DNA of 64,000 nucleotides from Neptunitalea lumnitzerae (GTDB lineage: Bacteria; Bacteroidota; Bacteroidia; Flavobacteriales; Flavobacteriaceae). The translations under genes were made by a program, and so were the position numbers. The notes below the pieces were generated by a model. The model was not told the origin of the DNA. It did not search any database and was given only the letters and a program-made list of their open reading frames with translations. Each line of letters opens with the position of its first letter. Within the stretch, counting starts at the first letter, position 1. Below are positions 6,090 to 28,710 of the stretch, piece after piece. The stretch covers positions 271,968 to 335,967 of the forward strand of contig NZ_BRVO01000003.1 of NCBI RefSeq assembly GCF_027924185.1, given 5' to 3'.

Positions 6090-6340
6090 CTATACCCTAT
6101 AATACTACCTGAAAGTGCCAGTTCTTATTTTGTATTAAAAAGTTAGATTTTTGCTCAAAACTAGTCAATCATAGCAATAAGCTACATTATTTTAGCGAAT
6201 ATACACAGCGAAAACCTTTTAGTAATCTATTGGAGTCATTGTGTTTACTAGGTAAATGACTAGTTCTTAAAACTGGCTCCATTTTTTTAAAGATCAAGTT
6301 TTTTTTACGAATTTTGAAAAGACAGTAGACGCCATACACT

Positions 6341-7723
6341 ATGAACAAGCAATTATTTGACGACTTTAGTGAGGTTTCCGCAAAACAGTGGAAGCAAAAA
6401 ATTCAGTTTGATCTAAAAGGAAAAGACTATAATGAAACCCTTATTTGGAAAACCACAGAGGGTATTGATGTTAAACCTTTTTATACAGATGAAGATACAC
6501 AAGACACTTTTAAAGCACCGGTTAATAATGAGCAATGGCTTATTAACCAAAAGGTTTACGCAGGCGATGAAAAAATAGCCGCTAAGCTTGCTTTAGATTA
6601 TATTGCCAGAGGTGCAGAAAGCATCCGATTTGAAATACCTTCTGATAGTACACATTTAGATGTTTTACTAAAAGACTTTCCATTTGAAACTACACCAGTA
6701 TACTTATACTTTCATTTTCTATCGCAACAATTTATAGAAGAAGCGCAAGCATTTTTAAGTGCCAAAAATGCTAAGGGGTACATGGTATTAGATATTATTG
6801 GTAACTTGGCAGAAACAGGTAATTGGTATCAAAGTTTAACAGAAGACCATGAGGTATTAGAAAATGCTTTGGCACACCAACAAAGTTTTCCGTTGGCTGT
6901 AGGTATAGATACTAGCATTTACCAAAATGCAGGTGCCAATTGCACCCAACAGTTAGCCTATGCCATGGGGCATGTAAATGAGTACCTTAACCATTTACAA
7001 AACAAACCGTATTTTAAAGAGTTAACCTTTGTATTTGATGTTGCAGTAGGTACTAATTACTTCTTTGAAATTAGCAAACTAAAAGCACTACGTACCTTAT
7101 GGAACACGTTGTCTGATGCATACGAGATAACCAACAACTGCTTTATTTACGCCACACCTACTAAACGTAACAAAACTATTTACGATTACAATGTAAATAT
7201 GCTGCGCACAACTACCGAGTGTATGAGTGCTATTTTAGGTGGTGCCGACGCAGTAGCTAATATGCCATACGATGGCTTGTTTCATAAAGAAAATGAGTTT
7301 GGTAACCGCATTGCTCGTAATCAACTGCTTATTTTAAAACATGAGAGCTACTTTAACTTGGTTAACAACCCAACGGAAGGTACATACTATATTGAAAGTA
7401 TTACCAAACAACTGGCAGAAAAAGCTTTAGCGGTTTTTAAAAGCATAGAAGCAGGTGGCGGATTTTTAGCGCAGCTAAAATCACATATTATTCAGAAAAA
7501 AATAAAAGAAAGTGCTGCAGAAGAGCAAGCCTTATTTGATGCTAATGAGTTGGTGGCTATTGGTACCAACAAGTACCCGAATCCGCAAGACGTAATGAAA
7601 AACGACTTGCAACTATATCCGTTTGTAAAAACCGATGTAAAGAAAACATTGATTGAGCCAATTTTTGGCAAACGCCTATCGGAAGCATTAGAAAAAGAAC
7701 GCTTAGCTGAGGAAAAGCAATAA
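6341..7723 (+). CDS. mutA: methylmalonyl-CoA mutase small (beta) subunit
   Basis: 460 aa mutase-like TIM-barrel sequence without a B12-binding motif, directly upstream of the large subunit. Confidence 0.8.
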
Positions 7724-7745
7724 ACGTAAACAAAAAACAAAACGT

Positions 7746-9869
7746 ATGAGCAGAAAAGACATACAGAGTTTAACGTTAAAAAGTGCAGTAGCCACACCTA
7801 CCACTGCAGCAGAAGGTTTTACCACTGCAGAAGGTATTACCGTTAAAAAAGAATACACTGAAACCGATATAGAAAACGCAGAACATTTACACTTTGCCGC
7901 TGGGATTGCTCCTAATCTTCGTGGGCCGTACAGTACAATGTATGTGATACGTCCGTGGACCATTAGACAATACGCAGGGTTTTCTACGGCAGAAGAAAGT
8001 AATGCCTTTTACAGACGTAATTTAGCTGCCGGACAAAAAGGACTTTCTGTAGCATTTGACTTAGCCACGCACCGAGGGTATGACAGTGACCATGAACGTG
8101 TAGTGGGCGATGTTGGTAAAGCAGGGGTTGCTATTGATTCTGTAGAAGATATGAAAATATTATTCGATCAGATTCCTTTAGATAAAATGTCGGTATCTAT
8201 GACTATGAACGGGGCCGTATTACCCATTATGGCCTTTTACATTGTAGCTGCGGAAGAACAAGGGGTAAGTCCTGACCTATTATCGGGTACCATACAAAAC
8301 GATATTTTAAAGGAATTTATGGTGCGTAATACATACATCTACCCACCTACTCCTTCCATGAAAATTATTGCTGATATTTTTGAATATACCAGCAAAAACA
8401 TGCCACGCTTTAACAGCATTAGTATTTCTGGTTATCACATGCAAGAGGCAGGTGCAACTGCCGATATTGAATTGGCTTATACCCTATCAGACGGTTTAGA
8501 ATACATACGTACAGGACTAAAAGCAGGAATGGATATTGATAGCTTTGCTCCACGTCTTTCATTTTTCTGGGCTATTGGTATGAATCATTTTATGGAAATA
8601 GCAAAAATGAGAGCTGGGCGTATGCTATGGGCAAAATTGGTTAATCAATTTAGTCCTAAAAATGCTAAATCATTGGCATTGCGTACACACTGCCAAACCA
8701 GCGGATGGAGTTTAACAGAACAAGACCCGTTTAACAATGTTGCACGTACGTGCATAGAAGCAGCAGCAGCAGCATTTGGAGGTACTCAAAGTTTACACAC
8801 CAATGCACTTGATGAAGCTATTGCCTTACCTACCGATTTTTCGGCGCGTATTGCACGTAACACACAGTTATATCTGCAACAAGAAACCCATATTACCAAA
8901 ACAGTAGACCCTTGGGCTGGTAGTTATTACATTGAAAATCTGACCAAAGAAATTGCAGATAAAGCCTGGAAACTTATTGAAGAAGTTGAAGAGTTAGGTG
9001 GAATGACCAAAGCTATTGAAGCAGGTATTCCTAAAATGCGCATTGAAGAAGCTGCAGCAAGAAAACAAGCACGTATAGATAGTGGACAAGATATTATTGT
9101 GGGGGTTAATAAATACCGCTTAAAACAAGAAGATCCGCTACAAATATTAGAGGTAGACAACCAAGAAGTACGCAGACAGCAAATTGCACGCTTGGAAAAA
9201 ATAAAAGCCACTAGAGACAACCAGGCAGTAACGGAGGCTTTAGCTAAAATAACCGAAGCAGCTAAAACCGGTAAAGATAATTTACTAGCGCTTGCAGTAG
9301 ATGCTGCCAGAAAAAGAGCTACCTTAGGAGAAATTAGTGACGCCATGGAGGCGGTATTTGGAAGATACAAAGCAAAAATTCAATCGTTTAACGGAGTGTA
9401 TAGTAAAGAAATTAAAGACGATGATAGTTTTGCAAAAGCAAAACAAATGGCAGATGCCTTTGCCGAAGCAGAAGGTAGACGCCCCCGTATTATGATTGCC
9501 AAAATGGGACAAGACGGGCACGACCGTGGGGCTAAAGTAGTAGCCACTGGCTACGCCGATGTGGGCTTTGATGTAGATATAGGTCCGTTATTTCAAACCC
9601 CGGCAGAAGCCGCCAAACAAGCTGTGGAAAATGATGTCCATATTTTAGGGGTATCATCCTTAGCAGCCGGACATAAAACTCTGGTTCCGCAAGTAATTGA
9701 AGAACTTAAAAAGTATGATAGAGAAGATATTATGGTTATTGTTGGTGGTGTAATACCGCAACAAGATTATGATTATCTGTTTAAATCTGGAGCAGTAGCC
9801 GTATTTGGTCCTGGTACTAAAATCAGTGACGCTGCTATTCAAATATTAGAAATTCTGAGCGAAGAGTAA
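7746..9869 (+). CDS. mutB: methylmalonyl-CoA mutase large (alpha) subunit, B12-dependent
   Basis: 707 aa. Mutase substrate barrel plus C-terminal cobalamin-binding domain with a D-x-H-x-x-G motif ([13 protein letters not shown]). Confidence 0.92.
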
Positions 9870-10000: not shown

Positions 10001-10030
10001 AAGTCTTGAATCTTCAAGACTTTTTTATTT
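10001..10030 (+). terminator. Rho-independent terminator after the mutAB-tRNA unit
   Basis: Stem AAGTCTTGAA / TTCAAGACTT with a 2-nt loop, followed by TTTTTTATTT. Confidence 0.7.
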
Positions 10031-10233
10031 CTAGGAACATTTAATTTTAAGTTTTTTCTTCCTTTTAAGATCGGTTTAACATACAAAATACAATATATGC
10101 TATAGATTAACGTTTCTATGACATTTTTTTTAGCATAGAAAGAAGTATTTTATTTATTTTAGACCAAATTCCATTTCGTTCTATTAAAGGTTATGGTTTT
10201 TTGCCCCATTATAATAACTCTAATAACTATTAA

Positions 10234-11682
10234 ATGCTGTTCAATTCTATTGATTTTGCTATTTTTCTTCCAGTCGTGTTTTGTCTCTACTGGTTTGTAA
10301 CCAACAAAAACTTAAAACTTCAAAACTTATTAATAGCGCTTTCAAGCTATCTTTTTTATGGTTGGTGGGATTGGCGCTTTTTATCATTAATTCTTTTTAG
10401 TACTATAGTTGACTACTCCATTGGTTTAGGACTATTACACCAAAAGAAATCAAGTAAAAGAAAAACACTACTCTGGATTAGTATGTTAGTAAACTTAGGT
10501 TTTCTAGGTTTTTTTAAATACTTCAACTTTTTTGCAGAAAGTTTTGCTGATGCCTTTACTCTACTAGGGAACCCTATAGAACCTACACATTTAAACATAG
10601 TACTACCAGTGGGTATAAGCTTTTATACATTTCAAACAATGAGTTATACCATAGATGTGTACAAAGAAAAACTAGAACCGACCAAAGACTTTATTGCCTT
10701 TACTGCTTTTGTTAGTTTCTTTCCTCAATTAGTCGCTGGGCCCATTGAAAGAGCTACACATTTACTACCCCAATTTTATAAAAAACGAACGTTTAACTAT
10801 GCGCTTGCTGCAGACGGAATGCGACAAATTTTATGGGGACTGTTTAAAAAGGTGGTTATAGCAGATAATTGTGCGGAACTAGCCAATCAGATTTTTAATA
10901 ATCATACTGAAATGAGTGGTAGTACACTTGTTTTGGGCGCCATTCTCTTCACATTTCAAATTTATTGTGACTTCTCAGGATATTCAGATATTGCTATAGG
11001 AACATCTCGCTTATTTGGGTTTGATTTAATGCGTAATTTTGCATTCCCATACTTTTCAAGAGATATTGCTGAATTTTGGAGAAGATGGCATATTTCATTA
11101 TCTACATGGTTTAGAGATTATTTATATATACCCTTAGGTGGTAGTCGAGGAGGTACTTGGATGAAAGTTAGAAATACTTTCATTATATTTTTAGTGAGTG
11201 GTTTTTGGCATGGCGCTAATTGGACTTTTGTAATTTGGGGAGGTATTAATGCATTATATTTTCTCCCACTCCTACTTACTAATAAAAATAGAAACAACAT
11301 AGATGTGATAGCAAAAGATAAAATACTTCCTTCTTTTAAAGAGTTTTCACAAATACTAACCACTTTTTCCCTAACCGTTCTTGCTTGGATATTTTTTAGA
11401 GCTGAAAGCATTAGTCATGCAATAAGTTATATTTCAGGGATATTTTCTACATCACTTCTTAGTGTTCCTAAAATTCCAAATGCTAGTGGAGTAGCCACTA
11501 CCATCATTTTAACTATTATATTTGTTATGATTGAATGGGCTGGTAGAGATGGACAATACGCAATTGAAAAAATAGGCATTAGATGGAAAAAACCAGTTAG
11601 ATGGGCTATGTATTATGCTATTCTAATTGCTTTTTTATGGTTTGGTGGAAAACAACAAGAATTTATTTACTTTCAATTTTAG
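10234..11682 (+). CDS. MBOAT family membrane-bound O-acyltransferase (AlgI/DltB-like)
   Basis: 482 aa polytopic membrane protein with the MBOAT signature FWRRWHISLSTWFRDYLYIPLGG containing the conserved His. Confidence 0.85.
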   Translation: MLFNSIDFAIFLPVVFCLYWFVTNKNLKLQNLLIALSSYLFYGWWDWRFLSLILFSTIVDYSIGLGLLHQKKSSKRKTLLWISMLVNLGFLGFFKYFNFFAESFADAFTLLGNPIEPTHLNIVLPVGISFYTFQTMSYTIDVYKEKLEPTKDFIAFTAFVSFFPQLVAGPIERATHLLPQFYKKRTFNYALAADGMRQILWGLFKKVVIADNCAELANQIFNNHTEMSGSTLVLGAILFTFQIYCDFSGYSDIAIGTSRLFGFDLMRNFAFPYFSRDIAEFWRRWHISLSTWFRDYLYIPLGGSRGGTWMKVRNTFIIFLVSGFWHGANWTFVIWGGINALYFLPLLLTNKNRNNIDVIAKDKILPSFKEFSQILTTFSLTVLAWIFFRAESISHAISYISGIFSTSLLSVPKIPNASGVATTIILTIIFVMIEWAGRDGQYAIEKIGIRWKKPVRWAMYYAILIAFLWFGGKQQEFIYFQF

Positions 11683-18178: not shown

Positions 18179-21100
18179 ATGAAAAAACAATTACTTTTAA
18201 CCAAGTGGTTACTTGTTTTATGTATTTCCTTATTTTTTGGTTTTACGCAATTGCAGGCTCAAACCCTTTCTCCAGGTGATATTGCTATTATCGGAGTTGG
18301 AGTAGATTCAGAAGACGTTTACCTTGTTGCATTAAAAGACATAAATGCAGGCGAGATTATTTTCATTACAGATGAAGAAGCTTCTACCTCTGGATCTTTT
18401 AACTCTGGAGAAGGTTTTTTCAGTTTTACTACTCCAAACATAACTGCAGGAGATGTTTTTATGTTTAAAACAAGTGGAGTAACAGATATTGAAGGATCTG
18501 GAACTATTTCTGTAACCGGACATTCAGGTGCTTTTACTTTAAGCAATAGTGGTGATGGAGTTTACATATACCAATCTGCTAGTAACACCTATAACGGTAA
18601 TGATTATACCTTTTTAGGCTTTGCTGGAGAAGATTCAGGTGATGGTTCTATAGCCCCTGGATTAACAGAAGGCACTACTGCTATATATTTTGGTGGAGAT
18701 AACGGTAGATATGACGGCACAAGAACTGGTCTGGATCAAGCAGGTTTTTTAGCTGAAATTTATAATCCTACTAACTGGTCTACTTCTGGTTCTACAATGA
18801 CTTACGACACTACTGATTTTAGTTTTACTCCATCAGCATGCGCATTTTCATTCGGAGAAGCAACGTATACTTGTAACAGTAATACTTTAGGTAATAATAA
18901 TGATACTGTTCTAATTAGCATTCCTTACACAGGAAGCAGCTCTAACATAACTTCTGTTACAACTTCTAGTGCTGGTGTAATTGGCGGTGATGACCCTACT
19001 ACTGTTGCAGATGGAACAATAACAATTTCAGGATTATCTGAAGGTGACGCTTGGGATATTATAATAAACGGAGGAGATTGTGATGGTCTTGCAATAATTG
19101 AAACTGTTGGTGCTGCCATTTGTGACCCAGCCCCTACTACTTGTTTTGATTTAAGCACAGGTGCCGAGCTTTTTGAATTGGTTCCTGTAACTATGAACAC
19201 GCAAGGTGACGAGTGGACATACAGCTCAGGAAGTTATAGCATGAATGGATATTGTGGATCTGGATGTACTGAGGAATCTGATACGTGGTTAGTTTTTGGA
19301 CCATTAGACACTACTGGTGTTACTAACTTATCTTTATTATTTGAAAGCTCTGAAAGCTATTCTGGAACAGATTTATTAGTACAATATACTACTGCTTACT
19401 CTGGTTGCCCTACAAGTACTTCTTGGAACACCCTTGCTACTATAGCAAATGATGGTGACCAAAATATTGATTTATCGTCTGTTTCTGGTACCGATATTTT
19501 TATTGCTATTCAATACTACGATAACGACGGAACATATTCTTCATGGTCTCTTTATAACGTGGAATTAGAATCTTATGGTAGTTGCCCAGTATTGGGTACA
19601 AGACCTACTTCTAACTGTGCTATATGTGATATAGCTTTAGGAGAAGCTTCTTACGAATGTGATGCTATTACCAACGGTGCAGATACTGTTACCATTAGTA
19701 TCCCATATACAGGTATTGAGAATACAATTACCTCTTTAAGTACTACAGCTACTGGGGCTATTATTGGTGGTGATGACCCTGCTTTGGTTGCAGATGGTAC
19801 CATTATTATTACTGGTTTAGCAGAAGGAGATGCTTGGGACTTAACCATTAACGGAGGAGAATGTGACGGTAACACACTTTCAGGAACTATTTCTGATGTT
19901 ATTTGTTTACCTTGCCCTGCTACAGAAGGTGATTTAATTATTACTGAAATTATGCAAAACCCTAATATTGTTTCAGATGACAATGGAGAATATTTTGAAG
20001 TATACAATACTACAGGGGCGGCAATTGATATGCTTGGTCTTGTTATAGGATCTAATAACGCATCGGAAGAATTTACAGTAGATACTTCTGTTATTGTACC
20101 AGCTGGTGGATATGTGATTTTTGGAAAAAGTGCTGATACAGCTATTAATGGTGGTGTTGAAGTAGACTATGAATACCACAGTTCATTCTACTTAGGTAAC
20201 GGAGCAGACCAAGTAACCATATCTTGCCCAGGTTCTGGAAATGTTATTGATGAAGTGGTATATGACGGTGGTACGGCTTTCCCTGACCCTACTGGATCAG
20301 CTATGGAACTAAGCTTTGCTAGTTATAACAGTACAGATAATGACAATGGAGCTAATTGGTTTGAATCTCTAATTCCGTTTGGTGACGGTGACTACGGCAC
20401 ACCAAGATACAAAGGAAATTATTGGACAGGTGCTACAAGTACAGCTTGGACAGATGCTTCTAACTGGGAAGATACTCAAGTACCTATTACAGAAGATGCT
20501 GTTGCTATACCAGTATTATCTGGTTTAACTAACGAACCTACTATTACAAGTGGTGTTACAATAAGCAACCTAACTATTGGTTCTGGTGCTACACTTACAG
20601 TTGCATCAGGTGCAGCTATTGTAGTAACAGGAATTTCAGAAGGTACTGTTACAGTTGAAAGAGACTTAACAAATGCATGGCATTTAGTTTCTTCTCCGGT
20701 AGCCAATTTTACTCTAGAAGATTTTATTGCTGATAATTCATTAGCTACTGGTACTGGTAGTAATATAGGTTTAGCATCGTATGATACTGCTACCGATAGT
20801 TGGTTATATTCAACAGCAGCTACTACAGGCAACTGGACATCTGGTAACGGTTATACAACCTTATTATCTGGAGCTTCTACGGTAAGCTTTACAGGTACTA
20901 TACCAACTACAGATATAACCACAACTATTACTTCAGGTGGTACCTACGATTTTGGTTTGGTAGGTAACCCTTATCCTGCTTATATAACTATTGACGACTT
21001 ATTTTCTGCTAACAGTGCAGTGTTAAATGAAAATACAGTTTGGATGTGGGATGGTACACAATATGTTACTTTAAACACATTAAACGCTGGTTACATTGCT

Positions 21101-21919
21101 CCGTCACAAGGATTCTTTGTTAGTGGTGCTGGTGCTGTTAGTTTTACAAAAGATATGCAAACAACCAACACAGCAACTTTCTACAAAACTACAAGTGACG
21201 ATACGCATACATTAGAAAATGTAAACCAGGAAGAAATTGGAATGTTCAGACTTGCACTAACCAACAACGTTCAAAACGTTAGTACAGATATTTATTTTGT
21301 ACCAGGTGCAACACCAGGATTTGATAATGGCTATGATAGTTCTATGTTCTCTAGCGCTAACCCTGCTTTAGCCGTTTATACAACTACTGCTGCTAACGAT
21401 GTTACTAATAAATTGGCTATTCAAGCTATACCAACATCAGGCTATGCACAAATGTCAGTTCCTGTAGGTGTTATATCTTCAAATGGTGGTTCTGTAACCT
21501 TCAGTTTATCTCAAATGGTAGACTTACCAGTTGGGGTTCACATATATTTACAAGATAACTTAAATGGTACCACTACACAATTAGATACTTTTGGAGCTTA
21601 TTATGAAGTAGCCATACCAGCAGGTTATAACGGAACTGGAGATTTCTTTTTAAACATTACTAACGATGCTTTAGCCACAGATAACGTTTCTCTTACTACA
21701 GCAGAATTAATTACAAAAGGAAATGTAGTTACAATTTTAAATCTTGAACAAGATGCAACCTTAAATGTTTACAACATGTTAGGACAAAAAGTTCAAACAA
21801 CTAACCTGCAAGGTGCAAATAATCAATCAATCCAAGTATCAGTAACAACAGGAACCTACATTGTTTCTTTAGAAACTGAGAATGCTCAAATTACTAAGAA
21901 AATTATTATCAGAAATTAA
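18179..21919 (+). CDS. large secreted protein with lamin-tail domain and C-terminal T9SS sorting domain
   Basis: 1246 aa. Signal peptide. Internally duplicated module (..TYTCNSNTLGNNNDTVLISIPYTG..DAWDIIINGGDCDG and ..YECDAITNGADTVTISIPYTG..DAWDLTINGGECDG). LTD motif GDLIITEIMQNP..GEYFEVYNTT. C-terminal Por_Secre_tail-like ending ..TGTYIVSLETENAQITKKIIIRN. Confidence 0.8.
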   Translation: MKKQLLLTKWLLVLCISLFFGFTQLQAQTLSPGDIAIIGVGVDSEDVYLVALKDINAGEIIFITDEEASTSGSFNSGEGFFSFTTPNITAGDVFMFKTSGVTDIEGSGTISVTGHSGAFTLSNSGDGVYIYQSASNTYNGNDYTFLGFAGEDSGDGSIAPGLTEGTTAIYFGGDNGRYDGTRTGLDQAGFLAEIYNPTNWSTSGSTMTYDTTDFSFTPSACAFSFGEATYTCNSNTLGNNNDTVLISIPYTGSSSNITSVTTSSAGVIGGDDPTTVADGTITISGLSEGDAWDIIINGGDCDGLAIIETVGAAICDPAPTTCFDLSTGAELFELVPVTMNTQGDEWTYSSGSYSMNGYCGSGCTEESDTWLVFGPLDTTGVTNLSLLFESSESYSGTDLLVQYTTAYSGCPTSTSWNTLATIANDGDQNIDLSSVSGTDIFIAIQYYDNDGTYSSWSLYNVELESYGSCPVLGTRPTSNCAICDIALGEASYECDAITNGADTVTISIPYTGIENTITSLSTTATGAIIGGDDPALVADGTIIITGLAEGDAWDLTINGGECDGNTLSGTISDVICLPCPATEGDLIITEIMQNPNIVSDDNGEYFEVYNTTGAAIDMLGLVIGSNNASEEFTVDTSVIVPAGGYVIFGKSADTAINGGVEVDYEYHSSFYLGNGADQVTISCPGSGNVIDEVVYDGGTAFPDPTGSAMELSFASYNSTDNDNGANWFESLIPFGDGDYGTPRYKGNYWTGATSTAWTDASNWEDTQVPITEDAVAIPVLSGLTNEPTITSGVTISNLTIGSGATLTVASGAAIVVTGISEGTVTVERDLTNAWHLVSSPVANFTLEDFIADNSLATGTGSNIGLASYDTATDSWLYSTAATTGNWTSGNGYTTLLSGASTVSFTGTIPTTDITTTITSGGTYDFGLVGNPYPAYITIDDLFSANSAVLNENTVWMWDGTQYVTLNTLNAGYIAPSQGFFVSGAGAVSFTKDMQTTNTATFYKTTSDDTHTLENVNQEEIGMFRLALTNNVQNVSTDIYFVPGATPGFDNGYDSSMFSSANPALAVYTTTAANDVTNKLAIQAIPTSGYAQMSVPVGVISSNGGSVTFSLSQMVDLPVGVHIYLQDNLNGTTTQLDTFGAYYEVAIPAGYNGTGDFFLNITNDALATDNVSLTTAELITKGNVVTILNLEQDATLNVYNMLGQKVQTTNLQGANNQSIQVSVTTGTYIVSLETENAQITKKIIIRN

Positions 21920-21995
21920 ATTAAGACCAACAACTTAGAAGAATTTATAGAAGGTTCTTCTAAGTTGTATATCAATACATAAACCTATTAGTATT

Positions 21996-22205
21996 ATGGC
22001 TACTAAAAAAGAAAATCAACAAGAAGAGCTTATCACGAGAAAAGAAGCTCTTAAAAAAATCGGAACTTACAGTAAGTATGCAGCAGTAACAGCTTTAGGA
22101 ACTTACATTATGCTAAACCCTAAAAAATCTCAAGCCCAAAGTCCTGCTACACCAGGAACTGGATTTAGAGAGGCAGTTCTTTTTGACGAACTGAACAAAA
22201 ACTAA
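21996..22205 (+). CDS. small conserved peptide (69 aa) with conserved N-terminal 50 aa and variable C-terminal tail; putative exported/precursor peptide
   Basis: MATKKENQQEELITRKEALKKIGTYSKYAAVTALGTYIMLNPKKSQAQSP|ATPGTGFREAVLFDELNKN. Paralog at 25877. Own terminator downstream. Confidence 0.55.
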   Translation: MATKKENQQEELITRKEALKKIGTYSKYAAVTALGTYIMLNPKKSQAQSPATPGTGFREAVLFDELNKN

Positions 22206-22236
22206 ACTAACATTTTGCATAGTAAACACTTTGAAA

Positions 22237-22266
22237 AAGGAGCGATTTTAATCGCTCCTTTTTTTC
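22237..22266 (+). terminator. Rho-independent terminator after small peptide gene 1
   Basis: AAGGAGCGATT-TTA-AATCGCTCCTT followed by TTTTTT. Confidence 0.75.
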
Positions 22267-22799
22267 GTTTAAAACATTAAAAAACAGCACTTTAACACAT
22301 ATCTACTTTTGATATTAATTTTTTAAGACAATTCCTGTTAAAAAAACAAAACCTAAGGTAAAAGATACAGCTAAAAGCCACAAAAAACCTAATTAAATTA
22401 CTAATAAACAGAAAGTTAATGCTAAAAAATTATATCTTTAAAATATAAAACAAACATTGCAAAATACCCTCTAAACATTCCATTTTCACGATTTAATCAT
22501 TTTATCATAAATTAACAAAAACAAAATAAAACATATTCATAATTGTTTAATCTTCATAATAATCAGCCTTTAATTAAATTATTATAACAAAAAATCATTT
22601 CTAATAGAAATATCAAAAACAAATAATTAAATAAAATACTGATTAACAACACATTACAAACAAAAACTCTCAACACCTCAACAATCACTTTTATACATAA
22701 AAACTACTTTATTTACTCCAACTGATTATGCTTCAATATATTTAACAAAGTATTTTTATACTGTAAAGTAATTTTAACATCAAATCAAAACGTTTTTCT

Positions 22800-22807
22800 T
22801 ACATTTG
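22800..22807 (+). promoter_or_regulatory. candidate -7 element TAcaTTTG for the second T9SS gene
   Basis: TACATTTG 46 nt upstream of the ATG at 22854. Identical octamer to the one upstream of the paralog at 18179. Confidence 0.4.
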
Positions 22808-22853
22808 TTCCTGAAAAGCTGCTTTGTTAAAGCACTAAAAATTAATAGAAATT

Positions 22854-25814
22854 ATGGCGATCAAATTACCCAGGACTTTATTGTCCCTTTACTTAACCAT
22901 GGCTTTTTCCCTAGCTCTTACTTGCTCATGGGGACAAACCTTAACAGCAGGTGATTTTGCCATTGTTGGTTTTAATGCCAACGATGAGTATGTTACCATT
23001 GCTGCCTTATCAGACATTCCTTCTGGAGAAACGGTTTTCTTTACAGACGAAGAATGGAATGGAGCAACCTTTAATACAGGAGAAGGCTTCTTAGAATGGA
23101 TTACACCAACCATTTCGGCTGGTGATGTATTTACCCTAACCACTAGTGGTATGAGTGGTATTACCGGAGCAGATCAAGGTACCCTTTCAGCCCTTACTGG
23201 AAGTTTTGTACTCGGAAATGCTGGTGATGGTGTTTTCATTTATCAAACGGATGACAACACTTACAACAGTACCAACGTTAACTTTTTAAGTTTTGCTGGT
23301 GAAGATGCTACCTCAGCAGGAACACTTACTGGCACTAATTTAACCCTTGGTTATACTGCAATTTATATGGGTGCAGTAAATGGTGAATATGTTGAGACTA
23401 GAAATGACCAAGATAAAGATGGCTTTCTTTATTTAATCAATGACAACTCTAACTGGATTACCTACGGAAATGCTTCTTCATTAGTATTTGATGATACTGA
23501 TTTTACCTTTACCCCTGGAAGTGTTTGTAATATTACTTTTGCCACCCCAACTTACACTTGTACCTCTGAAACTTTAGGAGCTAACAATGATCAAGTAATC
23601 GTTTCAATTCCTTTTACCGATGCAAACCCGACAATTGAATCTGTAACAACCTCAACTGTTGGTACAATTGGTGGTGATAATCCTACAACGGTTACTAATG
23701 GTATTATAACCATTTCTGGTTTAACTGAAGGTGACTACTGGGATATTGTAATAAACGGTGGTAGCTGTGATGGAATTACTTTATCTGATACTATATCAGA
23801 TGTTATTTGTGATCCTTGCCCTAACGAAGGAGATCTTATTATTACAGAAATAATGCAAAACCCAAGCGCAGTAGATGATGCGTATGGTGAGTATTTTGAA
23901 GTATATAACACTACTGATCATGACATTGACATGATAGGACTTACAATTGGTTCTAACTATGCTCCAGAAGAATTTACAATAACTACTTCTTTGGTAGTTG
24001 CACCAGGAGCGTTTGTAGTATTTGGTAAAAATTCAGACACTGCTGCTAATGGAGGTGTTACACTAGATTATACCTACCCTACTACATTTAATTTAGGAAA
24101 CAGTTCAGATCGTATTACTATTTCATGTAACGACGACTTAATTGATAGAGTGGCGTACGATGATGGAGCTACATTCCCAGACCCAATTGGGGCATCTATG
24201 GAACTAAATTCAGAACACTACAACAGTACCGATAATGATTTAGGAAGTAACTGGTACACCGCTACTGTTGAATACGGTAATGGTGACTACGGTACTCCTG
24301 GATATCGTGTGAATGAATGGACCGGCGCTGTTGATACAGACTGGTTTAATACCGCAAACTGGTCTAACAATACGGTACCTAATAGTTCTGATGCTGTTTA
24401 CATTCCAACTGCTGCATCATTAACAAACCAGCCAACTGCTGCAACAGGTTCTATTACAATAAATAGTTTATTAATTGGTAATGGTTCAGAACTTACTATT
24501 GGTTCTGGTGTTCCAATTGTAGTTACTGATGCTGCTGAAGGTATTATTACGGTAGAAAGAGACCTTACAAATACATGGCATTACATATCTACTCCAGTAG
24601 TTGAAGCTTCTTTAGAAGATTACATTTCTTCTGCTCCTTTAGCTAGTGGTACTGGTAGTAACTTAGGATTGGCTTCTTATACTACCTCAAGTGATAGTTA
24701 TGTTTACGCAACTAACGCAACAAATGGTACATGGTTTTCTGGTACAGGATATTCTACGTTACTTTCAAGTAATGCAACAGTAAGTTTAACTGGTGAGTTT
24801 CCTACTAACAATATTGCGGTAACCTTAGCTGCTGGTGGTGTTAGAGATTTTAACTTAATAGGTAACCCTTACCCATCATATGTAACGGTTGCAGATTTAT
24901 TAGACCAAAATTCAGGTGTTTTAAATGAAAACACTTTATGGTTTTGGGAGAATAATCAATTTGTAACTATTAATGTTTTAAATGGTACTAATATTGCACC
25001 AATGCAAGGATTTATAGTTAGTGGTAGTGGTAACTTCTCTTTTACAACTGACATGCAAACTGTAGAAACAAGTACTTTTTACAAAACTACCAATAGCTAT
25101 ACACATGCTAATGTTCAGCCAGAAACTTTAAGTATGTTTAAATTACAAGTAGCCAACAGTGTTAACGCTATTTCTGCTACCGATATTTATTTAGTATCTG
25201 ATGCTACAACTAGCTTTGATAACGGTTATGATAGTTCAATGTTTTCTGGTACAGCTTCAAACTTTGGTGTATATACCACTTCTGTAGCTAACGATGTAAA
25301 CAACAAGCTTGCTATACAAGCCTTACCTACTACAGGATTTAATCAAATGCTAATTCCAGTTGGAGTTATTGCTAACAATGGAGGTACAGTAACTTTTAGT
25401 TTATCGCAAATTGAAAATTTACCAGCAGGAGTTCATGTATATTTACAAGACAACTTAAATGGTACAACTACGCAATTAGATACTTTTGGCGCTGATTACC
25501 AAGTTACCTTACCTACTGGATACAACGGAACAGGAGATTTCTTCATTAGCCTAACAAATGAAGCTCTTGCAACAGATAGTATTACAACAAATAATACACA
25601 AATAATTGCTAGCGGTGCTACTGTTACTGTAGTTAATTTAGAAGAAGATGCTACCTTACATTTATTCAACATGCTTGGACAACAAGTTACTAGCAAGAAA
25701 ATACTTGCTGCTAACAGCCAAGATGTTTCTTTTGATGTAACACCAGGTACATATATCTTATCTTTAGAGGCTAGCACTTTTAAAGAAAACAAGAAAATCA
25801 TACTTAAAAAATAA
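22854..25814 (+). CDS. large secreted lamin-tail-domain protein with C-terminal T9SS sorting domain (paralog of 18179..21919)
   Basis: 986 aa. N-terminal region collinear with the paralog (GDFAIVGFNANDEYVTIAALSDIPSGETVFFTDEE..). LTD motif GDLIITEIMQNPSAVDDAYGEYFEVYNTT. C-terminal Por_Secre_tail-like domain. Confidence 0.8.
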   Translation: MAIKLPRTLLSLYLTMAFSLALTCSWGQTLTAGDFAIVGFNANDEYVTIAALSDIPSGETVFFTDEEWNGATFNTGEGFLEWITPTISAGDVFTLTTSGMSGITGADQGTLSALTGSFVLGNAGDGVFIYQTDDNTYNSTNVNFLSFAGEDATSAGTLTGTNLTLGYTAIYMGAVNGEYVETRNDQDKDGFLYLINDNSNWITYGNASSLVFDDTDFTFTPGSVCNITFATPTYTCTSETLGANNDQVIVSIPFTDANPTIESVTTSTVGTIGGDNPTTVTNGIITISGLTEGDYWDIVINGGSCDGITLSDTISDVICDPCPNEGDLIITEIMQNPSAVDDAYGEYFEVYNTTDHDIDMIGLTIGSNYAPEEFTITTSLVVAPGAFVVFGKNSDTAANGGVTLDYTYPTTFNLGNSSDRITISCNDDLIDRVAYDDGATFPDPIGASMELNSEHYNSTDNDLGSNWYTATVEYGNGDYGTPGYRVNEWTGAVDTDWFNTANWSNNTVPNSSDAVYIPTAASLTNQPTAATGSITINSLLIGNGSELTIGSGVPIVVTDAAEGIITVERDLTNTWHYISTPVVEASLEDYISSAPLASGTGSNLGLASYTTSSDSYVYATNATNGTWFSGTGYSTLLSSNATVSLTGEFPTNNIAVTLAAGGVRDFNLIGNPYPSYVTVADLLDQNSGVLNENTLWFWENNQFVTINVLNGTNIAPMQGFIVSGSGNFSFTTDMQTVETSTFYKTTNSYTHANVQPETLSMFKLQVANSVNAISATDIYLVSDATTSFDNGYDSSMFSGTASNFGVYTTSVANDVNNKLAIQALPTTGFNQMLIPVGVIANNGGTVTFSLSQIENLPAGVHVYLQDNLNGTTTQLDTFGADYQVTLPTGYNGTGDFFISLTNEALATDSITTNNTQIIASGATVTVVNLEEDATLHLFNMLGQQVTSKKILAANSQDVSFDVTPGTYILSLEASTFKENKKIILKK

Positions 25815-25876: not shown

Positions 25877-26077
25877 ATGAAAACGAACTCAAACGAAAAT
25901 CAAGAATTAATGACTCGTAAAGAGGCATTAAAGAAAATGGGAAAATTTGGTAAGTATGCTGCTGTAACAGCACTAGGAACTTATATTATGCTTAGTCCTA
26001 AAAAATCTCAGGCTCAAAGTCCAACTGAACCTGGTGAAGGATTTAAAGCACCTTTGCTTTTCCCCCCAGAAAAGTAA
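25877..26077 (+). CDS. small conserved peptide (66 aa), paralog of 21996..22205; putative exported/precursor peptide
   Basis: MKTNSNENQELMTRKEALKKMGKFGKYAAVTALGTYIMLSPKKSQAQSP|TEPGEGFKAPLLFPPEK. N-terminal 50 aa nearly identical to the paralog, C-terminal ~20 aa diverged. Confidence 0.55.
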   Translation: MKTNSNENQELMTRKEALKKMGKFGKYAAVTALGTYIMLSPKKSQAQSPTEPGEGFKAPLLFPPEK

Positions 26078-26096
26078 AATAATCACATTACAAAAT

Positions 26097-26130
26097 AAAA
26101 AGTCTTAGCCCTGCTAAGACTTTTTATTTT
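26097..26130 (+). terminator. Rho-independent terminator after small peptide gene 2
   Basis: AAAAGTCTTAGC-CCT-GCTAAGACTTTT followed by TATTTT. Confidence 0.7.
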
Positions 26131-26161
26131 ATATGTACCTTAGTAATTAAAAGCAGACCCC

Positions 26162-27283
26162 ATGAAAAAGAACTCCGTACTAATAAAACCTATAGAAGAT
26201 AAAGCTTTTGTATGGTTTAAAAATAGTAATCAGTATAGTATTTTTGATCCATTTCTTGCCGACATTATTGAACATATAGATCAAGATACACCATTAGAGA
26301 TTGTTACACAACACATACAAAATGAAACTGGTTTATCAGTAGAAAAAGTACATGAAGTAATTGACGAACTTACACAACTAATAACTACTACCCTCCCTGT
26401 GGACGATCATTCTCAAAGTACTTTTGAAATACCTGAAGCTACCTTTTACAAAACGTATTACTACACTATTAACAATGCAACCTTTTGCTTTCATTATGGA
26501 AGTGAATATGTAATGAATGAAATACACCTTAAGTTTGCACATTTAGTTACAAAAAAGGTTAAAGAACCCAACCATACAATTACCATTCTTGAGTCTGACA
26601 ATACATTTTCACTACAAGTAGATGAAATATTTAATAACAATTATACGGAAGATAATTTTCATTACTTACAAGGTAAATTATCTATGTATATAATGATGTT
26701 AGCATATAAAAAACCAGAGAGAGAATGGCTAGGTGTTTTTCACGCCTCGGCTATATCATACAATGGTAAAAGCGCTATGTTATTAGGAGATTCTGGCAAC
26801 GGTAAAAGCACTGCCCTAGCCATTGCTCATGCCAACGGATTTAATTGTATTGCAGACGATTTTGTACCTATGGGCTCTGCACTACAAAACATCTACCCTT
26901 TTCCGGCCGCCATATCTGTTAAAGAAAAAAGCTTACCTGTTTTAGCTAATTACTATCCTGATATAATGGAAAAGCCAAGTTTTAAAAACAGATTAGGCAA
27001 AACGGTAACTTTTATTCCAACTGACTCACATATTACTATTACTTACCCTTGCCATAACCTTATATTTATTAAATACAAAGCAGGCTCTAATTTACAAGTA
27101 GCACCAATAACAAAAACAGATGCTTTTCAGCAATTGGTACCAGACTCTTGGTTATCTCCGGAGCCAGAAAATGCAGAAATATTTTTAAATTGGTTTAACA
27201 CTGTTAAGACCTATCAGCTAACCTACTCCAAAACAGAAGATTTATTAGCTACTCTAAAAGATATACTGGATGGTAACCATTAA
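26162..27283 (+). CDS. PqqD-like (RRE) domain fused to HPr-kinase-related P-loop domain protein
   Basis: N-terminal ~70 aa (VLIKPIEDKAFVWFKNSNQYSIFDPFLADIIEHIDQDTPLEIVTQHIQNETGLSVEKVHEVIDELTQL) fits the PqqD/RRE pattern. The central LLGDSGNGKSTALAIAHANGF matches the HPr kinase/phosphorylase Walker A (GDSGvGKSe). Confidence 0.6.
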   Translation: MKKNSVLIKPIEDKAFVWFKNSNQYSIFDPFLADIIEHIDQDTPLEIVTQHIQNETGLSVEKVHEVIDELTQLITTTLPVDDHSQSTFEIPEATFYKTYYYTINNATFCFHYGSEYVMNEIHLKFAHLVTKKVKEPNHTITILESDNTFSLQVDEIFNNNYTEDNFHYLQGKLSMYIMMLAYKKPEREWLGVFHASAISYNGKSAMLLGDSGNGKSTALAIAHANGFNCIADDFVPMGSALQNIYPFPAAISVKEKSLPVLANYYPDIMEKPSFKNRLGKTVTFIPTDSHITITYPCHNLIFIKYKAGSNLQVAPITKTDAFQQLVPDSWLSPEPENAEIFLNWFNTVKTYQLTYSKTEDLLATLKDILDGNH

Positions 27284-28319
27284 AAACAACATATTATTTA
27301 TAGGCAAGTGCCTAACACTTAAAAAGGAAACTACCCATAGAGCATATATTGAACAAAAAATAAAATCTAAGGAAATAGATTGGGAGTTAATTGTACAAAT
27401 AAGTACAGCTTACTATGTTTTTCCTGCCTTATATGTAAATTTTAAAGCTGTAAATTTTTTAAAGCTTTTACCAGAAGATCTGGTTGCTTTTATGGAGCAT
27501 ATTTATGGTTTAAATAAAGAAAGAAATGAGCAAATTTTAGCTGAAGTTGAATCTTTGAATACCCTTTTAGTAGCTCACAATATTACTCCTATTTTTTTAA
27601 AAGGTACCGCATGTTTAGTAGATGGACTCTACGAAGATATTGGAGAGCGCATGATTGGAGATATAGACCTTATCATTGAAAAAAAAGAAACCGACCCGAT
27701 TATTAAAGTACTAACTAGTAACGGTTATACTTCTGACACCGACATTTTAAACAAAACCTTTTATAGTAAGCACTTACCTCGTTTTGTGCATGAAGAAAAA
27801 ATAGCTGCCTTAGAAATACACTTTAAAATTTTACAAAAAGACTCTTTAGATTACACATTTGCTAAAAGTAATATACAAGTTACTAAATCTGGCTTCTCTA
27901 TAATGCAATACCCCGCACTTTTATGGCATAGTGTAGCCTCCAACTACGTAGAAGATTACGGATATCAAGTATACTCGGTACCACTTAGAAATTTTTACGA
28001 CGTTTATTTATTATCATATAAGACACCATCAACAAGTGCATTTTCTGTAGCACCAAAATATCAGAAAATTGTAAATGCTTTTTTAGTCACCTGCCAGTAT
28101 ATTTTAGATAGTAATCAAATAGTATATGCTAAAAATAACGATACAGAAAGTTACTTACAGAACGTTTTGATACATATAGAAAACCCTGAAGACAAAGCTA
28201 AAAAAGTAGAAGAGCTAAAAGAGACCTATCTAAAAAAAGGTAGAATCAAACGCTATTTTAAAACCTTTTATAATATTCATATCTTTAAATATTACCTCCG
28301 TAAAATTTTTAAAAAGTAG
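27270..28319 (+). CDS. uncharacterised nucleotidyltransferase family protein (PF14907-like)
   Basis: 349 aa. Candidate NTase motif G-x...DIDLII (YEDIGERMIGDIDLIIEKKE). 14-nt overlap with the upstream kinase-like gene suggests translational coupling. Confidence 0.5.
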   Translation: MVTIKNNILFIGKCLTLKKETTHRAYIEQKIKSKEIDWELIVQISTAYYVFPALYVNFKAVNFLKLLPEDLVAFMEHIYGLNKERNEQILAEVESLNTLLVAHNITPIFLKGTACLVDGLYEDIGERMIGDIDLIIEKKETDPIIKVLTSNGYTSDTDILNKTFYSKHLPRFVHEEKIAALEIHFKILQKDSLDYTFAKSNIQVTKSGFSIMQYPALLWHSVASNYVEDYGYQVYSVPLRNFYDVYLLSYKTPSTSAFSVAPKYQKIVNAFLVTCQYILDSNQIVYAKNNDTESYLQNVLIHIENPEDKAKKVEELKETYLKKGRIKRYFKTFYNIHIFKYYLRKIFKK

Positions 28320-28323
28320 TTTT

Positions 28324-28710
28324 ATGGCTAAGTTCAATAAATTAAAATATGTGATTTTTTTAGGGGCATTAATTTTCGTTATAGGTGCTTGTAGTGAAGA
28401 GGCTACTGAAAAAGAAACTAATATGATGCATACTACTAATTTTAATGGTAGCAAGTGGAAGGAAAAACATGGTAACAACTACACCTACCGCCCAATTATG
28501 GTAGATAGCGTATTGCACAATGATAGCATACGACATTTAACTAAATCTGAAATTTTACAAACATTAGGTACTCCAGATAGGGAAAATAACAATTACTTTT
28601 ATTACTTAATTGAACAAAACAAACTTGGTTTTGTTACCCTACACACCAAAAATTTGGTCATTAAATTTGCTACCAATGACAGTATCGAGTGGATAAAACT
28701 ACACGAATAA
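28324..28710 (+). CDS. small lipoprotein, hypothetical
   Basis: Signal peptide with lipobox (LIFVIGAC|SEE), 128 aa. Confidence 0.5.
   Translation: MAKFNKLKYVIFLGALIFVIGACSEEATEKETNMMHTTNFNGSKWKEKHGNNYTYRPIMVDSVLHNDSIRHLTKSEILQTLGTPDRENNNYFYYLIEQNKLGFVTLHTKNLVIKFATNDSIEWIKLHE

Follow-up and report, generated by a model that had tools for sequence, protein, structure and literature searches.

A candidate RiPP-like module of a short signal-like peptide, an RRE-fused HprK-type kinase and a PF14907 nucleotidyltransferase in Neptunitalea lumnitzerae

In a 64,000-nucleotide stretch of the Neptunitalea lumnitzerae genome (contig NZ_BRVO01000003.1, positions 271,968 to 335,967 of the forward strand; hereafter the window), three consecutive plus-strand genes at 25877–28319 encode a 66-aa peptide, a kinase with a PqqD-like N-terminal domain, and a nucleotidyltransferase (NTase)-fold enzyme. 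We hypothesize, with about as much confidence as doubt, that they constitute a stand-alone module resembling those of peptides that are made by ribosomes and modified after translation (RiPPs), in which a precursor peptide, an HprK-type serine kinase fused to a RiPP recognition element (RRE) and a PF14907 transferase would yield a short modified secreted peptide. The trio is widespread in marine Bacteroidota and undescribed; a literature search turned up nothing on the module or the peptide family, nor on small genes that accompany cargo of the type IX secretion system (T9SS). In marine Flavobacteriaceae the module closes a series of gene pairs, each made up of a T9SS cargo gene and a peptide gene.

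An RRE-fused kinase, an adjacent short open reading frame (ORF) with a conserved N-terminus, an invariant serine and a coupled NTase together fit RiPP-like logic. A preliminary description of this DNA had already read the locus as a peptide-modification module. Its three ORFs (25877–26077, 66 aa; 26162–27283, 373 aa; 27270–28319, 349 aa) reappear in the ORF map as described, and its RRE, kinase, NTase, gene coupling and peptide link are all supported, but its argument from a hypervariable peptide core is not.

An RRE fused to an HprK/PEPCK-fold kinase

The N-terminal domain of the kinase (residues 1–76, nt 26162–26389, plus strand) was modelled alone with AlphaFold2 (AF2), which gave a β3-α3 topology at pLDDT 86. 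Foldseek placed the leader-bound lasso RREs of TbiB1 first among PDB structures (5V1V/5V1U; TM 0.65, rmsd 2.5–2.8 Å, 72–76 residues, probability 1.0), followed by lasso B1 6JX3, the RREs of ThcOx, CteB, TruD and McbB, and PqqD (5SXY); the modelled domain is thus a winged helix superimposable on known RREs. The fold search was needed because a sequence-profile search of the domain against the PDB returned only insignificant or spurious matches (ACP, E 0.007; MarR, E 0.11). Profile evidence for PqqD kinship comes from relatives: 16 of 34 homologous N-domains matched PF05402 (PqqD; best E 1.5e-5) and up to 25 of the 34 matched PqqD-family models of NCBIfam (NF050069, 25/34, best E 1e-4), of which the WgkC-type and lasso-type models lay nearest, but the window protein itself matched no PqqD model of Pfam or NCBIfam at E ≤ 10. 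The PqqD/RRE segment postulated at the N-terminus of the 26162–27283 product is therefore upheld by fold and by homologs, its own profile check having failed. Residues W18, N23 and Y25, located on β2/β3 in the AF2 model, are invariant among the aligned homologs; as leaders dock onto this strand edge in known RREs, the position is suggestive of a leader-binding role. The domain shares the β3-α3 winged-helix fold with lasso B1 (TbiB1) and PqqD RREs but is only 12–16% identical to them and fused to a kinase, and its role in binding a ligand is a prediction.

A full-length AF2 model of the protein (59 homologs, pLDDT 92) shows the β3-α3 domain, a low-confidence linker and a kinase body spanning residues ~96–373 (nt 26447–27283, plus strand). 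The best PDB matches of the body were ATP-PEPCK (Foldseek E 2e-7) and HprK/P (1KKL, E 2.5e-4), and its best NCBIfam match was TIGR04352, ‘HprK-related kinase A’ (E 7e-17, residues 192–367). The expected HprK-family profile was thus found, but at 61.4 bits against a curated cut-off of 200, which makes the window kinase a distant relative and not a member; PF07475 likewise scored 12.8 bits against 33.3. The P-loop GDSGNGKST (G209–T217, nt 26786–26812) and the ADD motif (D232–D233, nt 26855–26860) are invariant across 59 close homologs, and G-x-G-K-x-T and DD also across 40 distant ones of 20–35% identity. A PEPCK-like fold in the model, a Walker-A GxxGxGKS/T motif and a metal-binding DD place the protein among the HprK/PEPCK-fold P-loop kinases, and the HPr-kinase-like P-loop reported earlier is corroborated by the TIGR04352 match, the fold matches and the intact catalytic motifs.

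The 373-aa product is 100% identical to an N. lumnitzerae protein that NCBI names ‘phosphoenolpyruvate carboxykinase (ATP)’. This is probably a misannotation, explained by the kinship of the PEPCK and HprK folds; PEPCK has ~530 aa, whereas this protein has 373 and includes an RRE. A kinase profile search over representatives of 50%-identity clusters retrieved 5962 at E ≤ 1e-3 and 375 at E ≤ 1e-30, and the best 150 matches were nearly all full length, RRE included.

A coupled PF14907 nucleotidyltransferase

The third gene (27270–28319, plus strand, 349 aa) overlaps the kinase gene by 14 nt, in agreement with the translational coupling noted before. Its product belongs to PF14907 (NTP_transf_5), with 117.3 bits against a gathering threshold of 31.2 (E 1e-33, residues 35–252), and the DIDLII-type motif already recognized contains the D-x-D signature D131-I-D133 (nt 27660–27668). 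A PDB sequence search with the NTase gave no match; a profile search returned a weak match to aminoglycoside-2''-adenylyltransferase.

A conserved peptide family with an invariant serine

The candidate precursor gene (25877–26077, plus strand) encodes a K/N-rich N-terminus, a T-R-K-E-A-L-K-K motif, an h-region YAAVTALGTYIML, a c-region SPKKSQA, a core (Q47-SPTEPGEGF-F56) with the invariant Ser48 at nt 26018–26020, and, after the core, a lineage-specific tail, KAPLLFPPEK. Its reported paralog is real: the 69-aa peptide encoded at 21996–22205 (plus strand; peptide-family HMM E 1e-33) has the first ~56 residues in common with it and consists of a signal-like leader, QSPATPGTGF and a 13-aa tail.

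Relatives of the peptide fell into 42 clusters in a protein search, and a DNA-level scan of GTDB species representative genomes confirmed at least 470 gene copies. The best 80 of these at least 470 loci all belong to Tenacibaculum, Polaribacter and related Flavobacteriaceae, often with several per genome (four in Polaribacter Hel1_85). The family has no match in Pfam or NCBIfam. The window peptides have no identical entry in a collection of 5.8 billion proteins, in which an NCBI entry matches the neighbouring kinase at 100%, and the best matches to the 25877–26077 peptide (98% and 74%) both come from Logan read assemblies only. The window peptide genes are thus probably unannotated in their source genome. 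Most family members likewise derive from raw assemblies and not from NCBI, most peptide genes being absent from reference annotations.

Over 99 distinct peptide genes, the pairwise diversity amounts to 0.18, 0.06 and 0.49 at the first, second and third codon position, respectively. This pattern identifies a translated gene under purifying selection and rules out a non-coding or DNA-level element. The family consensus reads M-K-(K/N-rich)-I-T-R-K-E-A-L-K-K-I-G-x-Y-G-K-Y-A-A-L-T-A-L-G-T-Y-x-I-L-N-P-K-K-A-Q-A-Q-S-P-E-x-P-G-x-G-F. Ten columns of the leader are invariant in the family alignment, which is far better conservation than in ordinary signal peptides.

The core was counted in 104 sequences, with positions numbered after [KQ]KAQA, and forms the decapeptide x-S-P-E-x-P-G-x-G-F. 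Position +1 is Q, A or S, and the serine at +2 is present in 104/104; conservation is also strong for P at +3 (99/104), P at +6 (98/104), G at +7 (97/104), G at +9 (87/104) and F at +10 (93/104). In the most divergent family member the serine is replaced by threonine. The peptide ends exactly at the core phenylalanine in 80 of the 104 sequences, so that variable tails are a minority feature, and the diverged last ~20 residues that had been taken for a hypervariable core begin only behind the conserved decapeptide. The argument from a conserved leader and a hypervariable core therefore fails, and the tails of the two window peptides are, as their sequences read, a Neptunitalea-specific extension behind the decapeptide.

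Core and leader differ between two clades of the kinase, with SPExPGxGF in one and SPPDPGGNPFD in the other; the peptide variant peculiar to the second clade is ...KKMGKYAALTAVGTFVILNPLKAQSSSPPDPGGNPFD. When the 99 sequences were inspected, copies next to a kinase did not differ in any obvious way from the others. At five loci (L016, L027, L043, L047 and L062; peptide at ~10001–10252) a conserved 27-residue extension, RVNSGALEKIIDQQNEDxYEGIGDMYD, follows the GF, and L027 and L062 carry a further peptide gene of another type (…SPGANGFFD) in the space between the extended one and the kinase. Second-clade peptides at L113, L135 and L145 carry low-complexity tails rich in G, N, K, S and Y, which reach up to ~60 residues past the core.

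Export-signal-like character of the leader

The preliminary description had offered a long-n-region Sec signal with an A-x-A site as an alternative to a RiPP leader. By inspection, the leader has the layout of a substrate of Sec and signal peptidase I: a basic n-region (RKEALKK), a 13-residue h-region (YAALTALGTYxIL), a proline helix breaker and A-x-A (NP-KK-A-Q-A). The c-region [KQ]KAQA occurs in 91 of the 104 peptides, and in the window peptide the predicted site of signal peptidase I is A46|Q47. The n-region is unusually long and holds the invariant R-x-E-A motif. The two readings of the leader are compatible and do not exclude each other.

The resemblance of [ST]-R-[KR]-E-A-L-K-K to S/T-R-R-x-F-L-K raises another interpretation, a twin-arginine (Tat) signal: the peptide would then be a substrate or escort of the Tat system, and the RRE would act as a Tat proofreading chaperone does. 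The c-region is basic (PKK), a handful of members (P0150, P0151 and L086) have a genuine RR, and faint matches to Tat families were obtained (TIGR02811, E 0.035; TIGR01409, E 0.048). All Tat-family matches, however, lie far under threshold, the second ‘arginine’ position is K in most members, with S, Q, G, E or N in others, and the residues that are invariant, R-x-E-A, do not correspond to the Tat consensus. We therefore rejected a Tat signal as highly improbable.

Synteny of peptide, kinase and NTase

Gene neighbourhoods were analyzed at 32 distinct kinase loci, most of them selected through the peptide and 11 through the kinase. The peptide gene lies immediately upstream of the kinase in 29 of the 32, the NTase gene immediately downstream in 30, and cargo with a C-terminal sorting domain (CTD) upstream in 28; the 11 kinase-selected loci gave 10/11, 10/11 and 8/11, respectively. 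An independent metagenome sample of the second kinase clade, taken from a single-clade alignment, showed the peptide upstream in 44/60, the NTase downstream in 41/50 and cargo upstream in 30/44.

The full order cargo–peptide–kinase–NTase is kept, with kinases 25–30% identical to that of the window, at L084, at L085 and, in Prolixibacteraceae, at L089; peptide, kinase and NTase persist without a cargo gene at L081 and L086/87. These data support the view, suggested earlier from its position directly upstream, that the peptide belongs with the enzyme pair. As expected of a RiPP precursor, it is a short ORF adjoining modifying enzymes and co-conserved with them down to 25% kinase identity; contrary to the usual pattern of conserved leader and variable core, its core is itself conserved.

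In several genera (L001, L082, L083, L148 and L149) the cassette is found at one shared chromosomal site, flanked by trkA/trkH and a Mur-ligase gene; at L083 the kinase alone is left there, without peptide, NTase or cargo. At L088 (1–16500, in a 2.8-Mb genome) kinase and NTase genes stand apart, and the latter is embedded in a cluster for polysaccharide biosynthesis with genes for GT4, CapK_C, DegT aminotransferase, Polysacc_synt_2, Bac_transf and Glycos_transf_4. At the P0311 locus, genes of the Wza/Wzz/RmlA type come after those for kinase and NTase. A link of both loci to glycan chemistry is possible, and would fit either a sugar on the peptide or a glycan target.

Proposed pathway

We hypothesize that the RRE of the cytoplasmic kinase binds the pre-peptide at its strongly conserved N-terminal segment (R-x-E-A-[LI]-K-K ... 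K-Y-A-A-x-T-A) and that the kinase domain phosphorylates the invariant serine (Ser48, within S-P), two residues past the A-x-A site. By analogy with PsmK/PsmN of pseudomycoidin, the PF14907 enzyme would then add a nucleotide- or sugar-derived group to the serine phosphate; the position of the NTase inside the L088 polysaccharide cluster is compatible with sugar chemistry. The leader would double as a Sec-type signal, with signal peptidase I cutting after A-Q-A, and a peptide of ~10 residues, x-S(P-X)-P-E-x-P-G-x-G-F, would be released to the periplasm or beyond. Other peptide copies behind T9SS cargo genes elsewhere, which have the same leader and core, might be modified in trans.

Association with T9SS cargo and alternative interpretations

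In the window, the plus-strand gene order is 1246-aa protein, 69-aa peptide, 986-aa protein, 66-aa peptide, 373-aa kinase and 349-aa NTase. The two large proteins are paralogs of each other and T9SS cargo, each with a lamin-tail (LTD) domain and a type-A CTD (TIGR04183/PF18962): 18179–21919 encodes the 1246-aa protein (Pfam LTD E 4e-12, Por_Secre_tail E 4e-8, TIGR04183 E 6e-10) and 22854–25814, directly 5' of the 25877–26077 peptide gene, the 986-aa protein (Pfam LTD E 4e-14, TIGR04183 E 2e-7), both scoring above the TIGR04183 cut-off of 23 bits. Downstream of the paralogous peptide gene lies a terminator-like hairpin followed by a U-run (22233–22264, plus strand; −20.3 kcal/mol, z −5.1), for which none of 200 shuffles was equally stable. 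The 66-aa peptide gene has its own terminator, as the preliminary description held, in the form of a terminator-like hairpin between it and the kinase gene (26092–26130, plus strand; −21.8 kcal/mol, z −5.7). This terminator is not a family-wide feature, since just 2–40 nt separate the two genes in many loci. Positions 18179–25814 hold tandem paralogous cargo genes, each with a peptide gene and terminator of its own; what is duplicated is the cargo together with the peptide, and not the peptide by itself. Arrays of two to three cargo–peptide units were also observed at L004, L019, L022, L030, L057, L063, L072, L073 and L082.

Across the 99 peptide genes of the window and 80 other loci, 86 lie within 150 nt 3' of a paralog of the window's large proteins, and most others are also 3' of very large T9SS-CTD proteins, but from other families. 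In the CTD-model analysis, an ORF of at least 250 aa ends no more than 200 nt upstream of 94 of 105 peptide genes, with a median gap of 22 nt. Of the remaining 11, seven either lie at the end of a contig or follow a cargo ORF that is fragmented. A cargo gene immediately upstream is missing from the other four, namely the peptide genes at L081 and L086 and, in the tandem pairs at L027 and L062, the second one. Conversely, 37 of the 131 CTD ORFs found by the CTD HMM in peptide loci lack a peptide, and no obvious CTD difference sets cargo followed by a peptide apart from cargo that is not.

Large TPR-like proteins with a C-terminal LuxR/GerE-type HTH repeatedly adjoin cargo–peptide pairs (L010 13778–15421, L054 10573–12204, L059 13292–16141 and L066 2693–4549) and may be regulators. 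Upstream of the cargo-less trio at L081, positions 6300–9500 contain two copies of a ~1.6-kb repeat, each with a ~320-aa coiled-coil-like protein and small ORFs in common, which suggests that a rearrangement removed the cargo gene.

Several observations weigh against the pathway proposed above. The strongest is that the tightest genomic partner of the peptide gene is the upstream T9SS cargo gene: almost all copies follow one, and only 23 of the 99 are followed by a kinase, so that the cargo could be the peptide's primary partner. About a quarter of the kinases lack an adjacent peptide (e.g., L063, L072, L083, L138, L150 and L154). At L085 the peptide is almost unchanged beside a kinase only 26% identical to that of the window, which implies that something besides the kinase may also constrain it. 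With a bulky group placed two residues away from where the peptide is cut, Sec transport or signal peptidase might be hindered. Finally, the kinases of lasso peptides are reported to recognize a C-terminal serine, the rest of the peptide being of little weight (PMC8498205), whereas the conserved serine here is, by its place in the sequence, internal.

These points lead to an alternative in which the peptide is an unmodified small secreted or membrane-associated accessory of T9SS cargo, and the kinase and NTase, which just happen to stand where one cargo array ends, target an envelope glycan or another protein. The peptide gene follows T9SS-CTD genes at a median spacing of 22 nt nearly always, unrelated cargo families included; the family is multi-copy per genome, with most copies far from any kinase; the kinases at L063, L072, L150 and L154 directly follow a cargo gene without a peptide; and two kinase loci adjoin polysaccharide genes. 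Yet the kinase carries an RRE, a domain so far known for binding RiPP precursors, and the trio is kept without cargo at L081 and L086. The 37 CTD proteins without a peptide indicate that cargo needs no peptide in cis, and the near-identity of the peptides speaks against cargo-specific recognition. On balance, we regard this alternative as unlikely.

The pre-peptide could also be a ligand and not a substrate, such that unexported precursor builds up in the cytoplasm, binds the RRE and switches the kinase on or off toward another target, thereby reporting export load during the production of large cargo. The unusually conserved, export-signal-like leader, the co-transcription of peptide genes with very large secreted proteins and the direct fusion of RRE and kinase would suit such a sensor, to which we nevertheless give a slim chance: it leaves unexplained the invariant serine and conserved decapeptide past the cleavage site as well as the tightly coupled NTase, and we know of no precedent for it.

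A further possibility, for which the prospects are similarly slender, is that the modified decapeptide serves as a stoichiometric partner of T9SS cargo, e.g., as an acceptor or linker that the T9SS sortase PorU joins to the new C-terminus of the cargo. Speculatively, kinase and NTase would build a phosphate-linked glycan or anchor on it, as a peptide counterpart of the A-LPS linkage of Porphyromonas. Such a partnership would explain why many unrelated cargo genes are each co-transcribed with one of the near-identical peptide genes, why one enzyme pair serves all peptide copies, and why the enzymes are sometimes found in polysaccharide clusters (L088 and the P0311 locus).

Other genes around the module

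The remaining surroundings in the window (genes for an SDR, topoisomerase IB, an OMP, a Band-7 protein and AraC regulators) were inspected and are unrelated to the module. Beginning 4 nt past the end of the NTase gene, 28324–28710 encodes a predicted lipoprotein of 128 aa (…VIGAC…), for which a weak match of BamE-like type was obtained (E 0.02). It was rejected as a fourth component, as no homolog occurs in ~165 other loci examined. An anti-phage defence system was likewise rejected, PADLOC giving no match.

Significance and relation to known systems

If the proposed module is real, it represents a large undescribed RiPP-like family, with 375 kinase clusters at E ≤ 1e-30 and at least 470 peptide genes. 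It would take the pairing of an HprK-type kinase with a PF14907 enzyme beyond the lasso-peptide context and provide that pair with a defined, easily synthesized substrate, a 10-residue core with one invariant serine. Whatever the chemistry, the one-to-one pairing of a near-invariant mini-gene with type-A T9SS cargo in Tenacibaculum and Polaribacter is unexplained, and T9SS matters for fish pathogens and marine polysaccharide degraders.

PorP/SprF-like genes adjoin type-B CTD cargo in Flavobacterium and encode outer-membrane β-barrels specific to type-B CTDs. The peptide genes resemble them as accessory genes that recur beside many T9SS cargo genes; here, however, the repeated gene encodes a 55–60-aa signal-like peptide, the cargo has type-A CTDs, and the peptide is near-identical from one cargo to another. 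TIGR04352 ‘HprK-related kinase A’ genes are found in the neighbourhood of PqqD-family and nucleotidyltransferase genes. The module has these three functional parts in common with such systems, except that its PqqD-like domain is fused to the kinase and is not a separate protein.

Bufferins are RiPPs modified by MNIO enzymes, and their precursors use Sec signal peptides (PMC11626156). As in our proposal, a Sec-type signal takes the place of a classical leader, transport and cleavage are left to general export and signal peptidase, and the cluster has no dedicated protease or exporter (PMC11626156), so that the present family would be the second example of RiPP precursors with a general signal peptide. 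The enzymes and chemistry are unrelated, however. Bufferin cores are Cys-rich mini-proteins of 60–70 residues, in contrast to ~10 residues here. Their modification can do without the signal peptide; in the peptides studied here, conservation is highest in the leader.

An HprK-type kinase, a nucleotidyltransferase and a PqqD-like domain are also the accessory set of lasso clusters in Firmicutes, and the module might accordingly be a remnant or variant of a paeninodin/pseudomycoidin-type cluster. Consistent with the preliminary description, however, no asparagine-synthetase-like lasso cyclase, transglutaminase-like leader protease or ABC exporter was found among the window neighbours or in the kinase-selected loci with called genes. 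In lasso register, the core shows no pairing of a free Gly/Ala/Ser/Cys at the N-terminus with a conserved Asp/Glu at 7–9, and the leader is signal-like. With the defining enzymes absent from all loci inspected, a lasso cluster was rejected as having next to no chance of being correct.

The nearest characterized system is nonetheless the Firmicutes lasso tailoring pair PsmK/PsmN. In lasso peptides of Firmicutes, an HprK homolog phosphorylates the C-terminal serine of the linear precursor (PMC8498205), and in pseudomycoidin the phosphate receives one or two hexoses from PsmN, an uncharacterized NTase-like enzyme whose D-x-D is essential (PMC6993621). The window shares with this pair an HprK-superfamily P-loop kinase, with a DD that is essential in the lasso system, and a partner NTase-fold enzyme with D-x-D (PMC8498205, PMC6993621). 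The likeness of PsmN to aminoglycoside-2''-adenylyltransferase in Phyre2 is mirrored by the weak match of the window NTase. PsmK and PsmN act on a ribosomal peptide, the kinase on the linear precursor (PMC8498205, PMC6993621), and by analogy the same may hold here. The module differs from PsmK/PsmN clusters in having no lasso cyclase, protease or ABC exporter, and from PsmK in that the kinase has its own fused RRE. Compared with paeninodin-type peptides, the conserved serine is at +2 of the predicted mature peptide and not C-terminal, and compared with the precursors of PsmK/PsmN, the leader is Sec-signal-like. Lastly, the module occurs in Bacteroidota, where it is linked to T9SS cargo genes.

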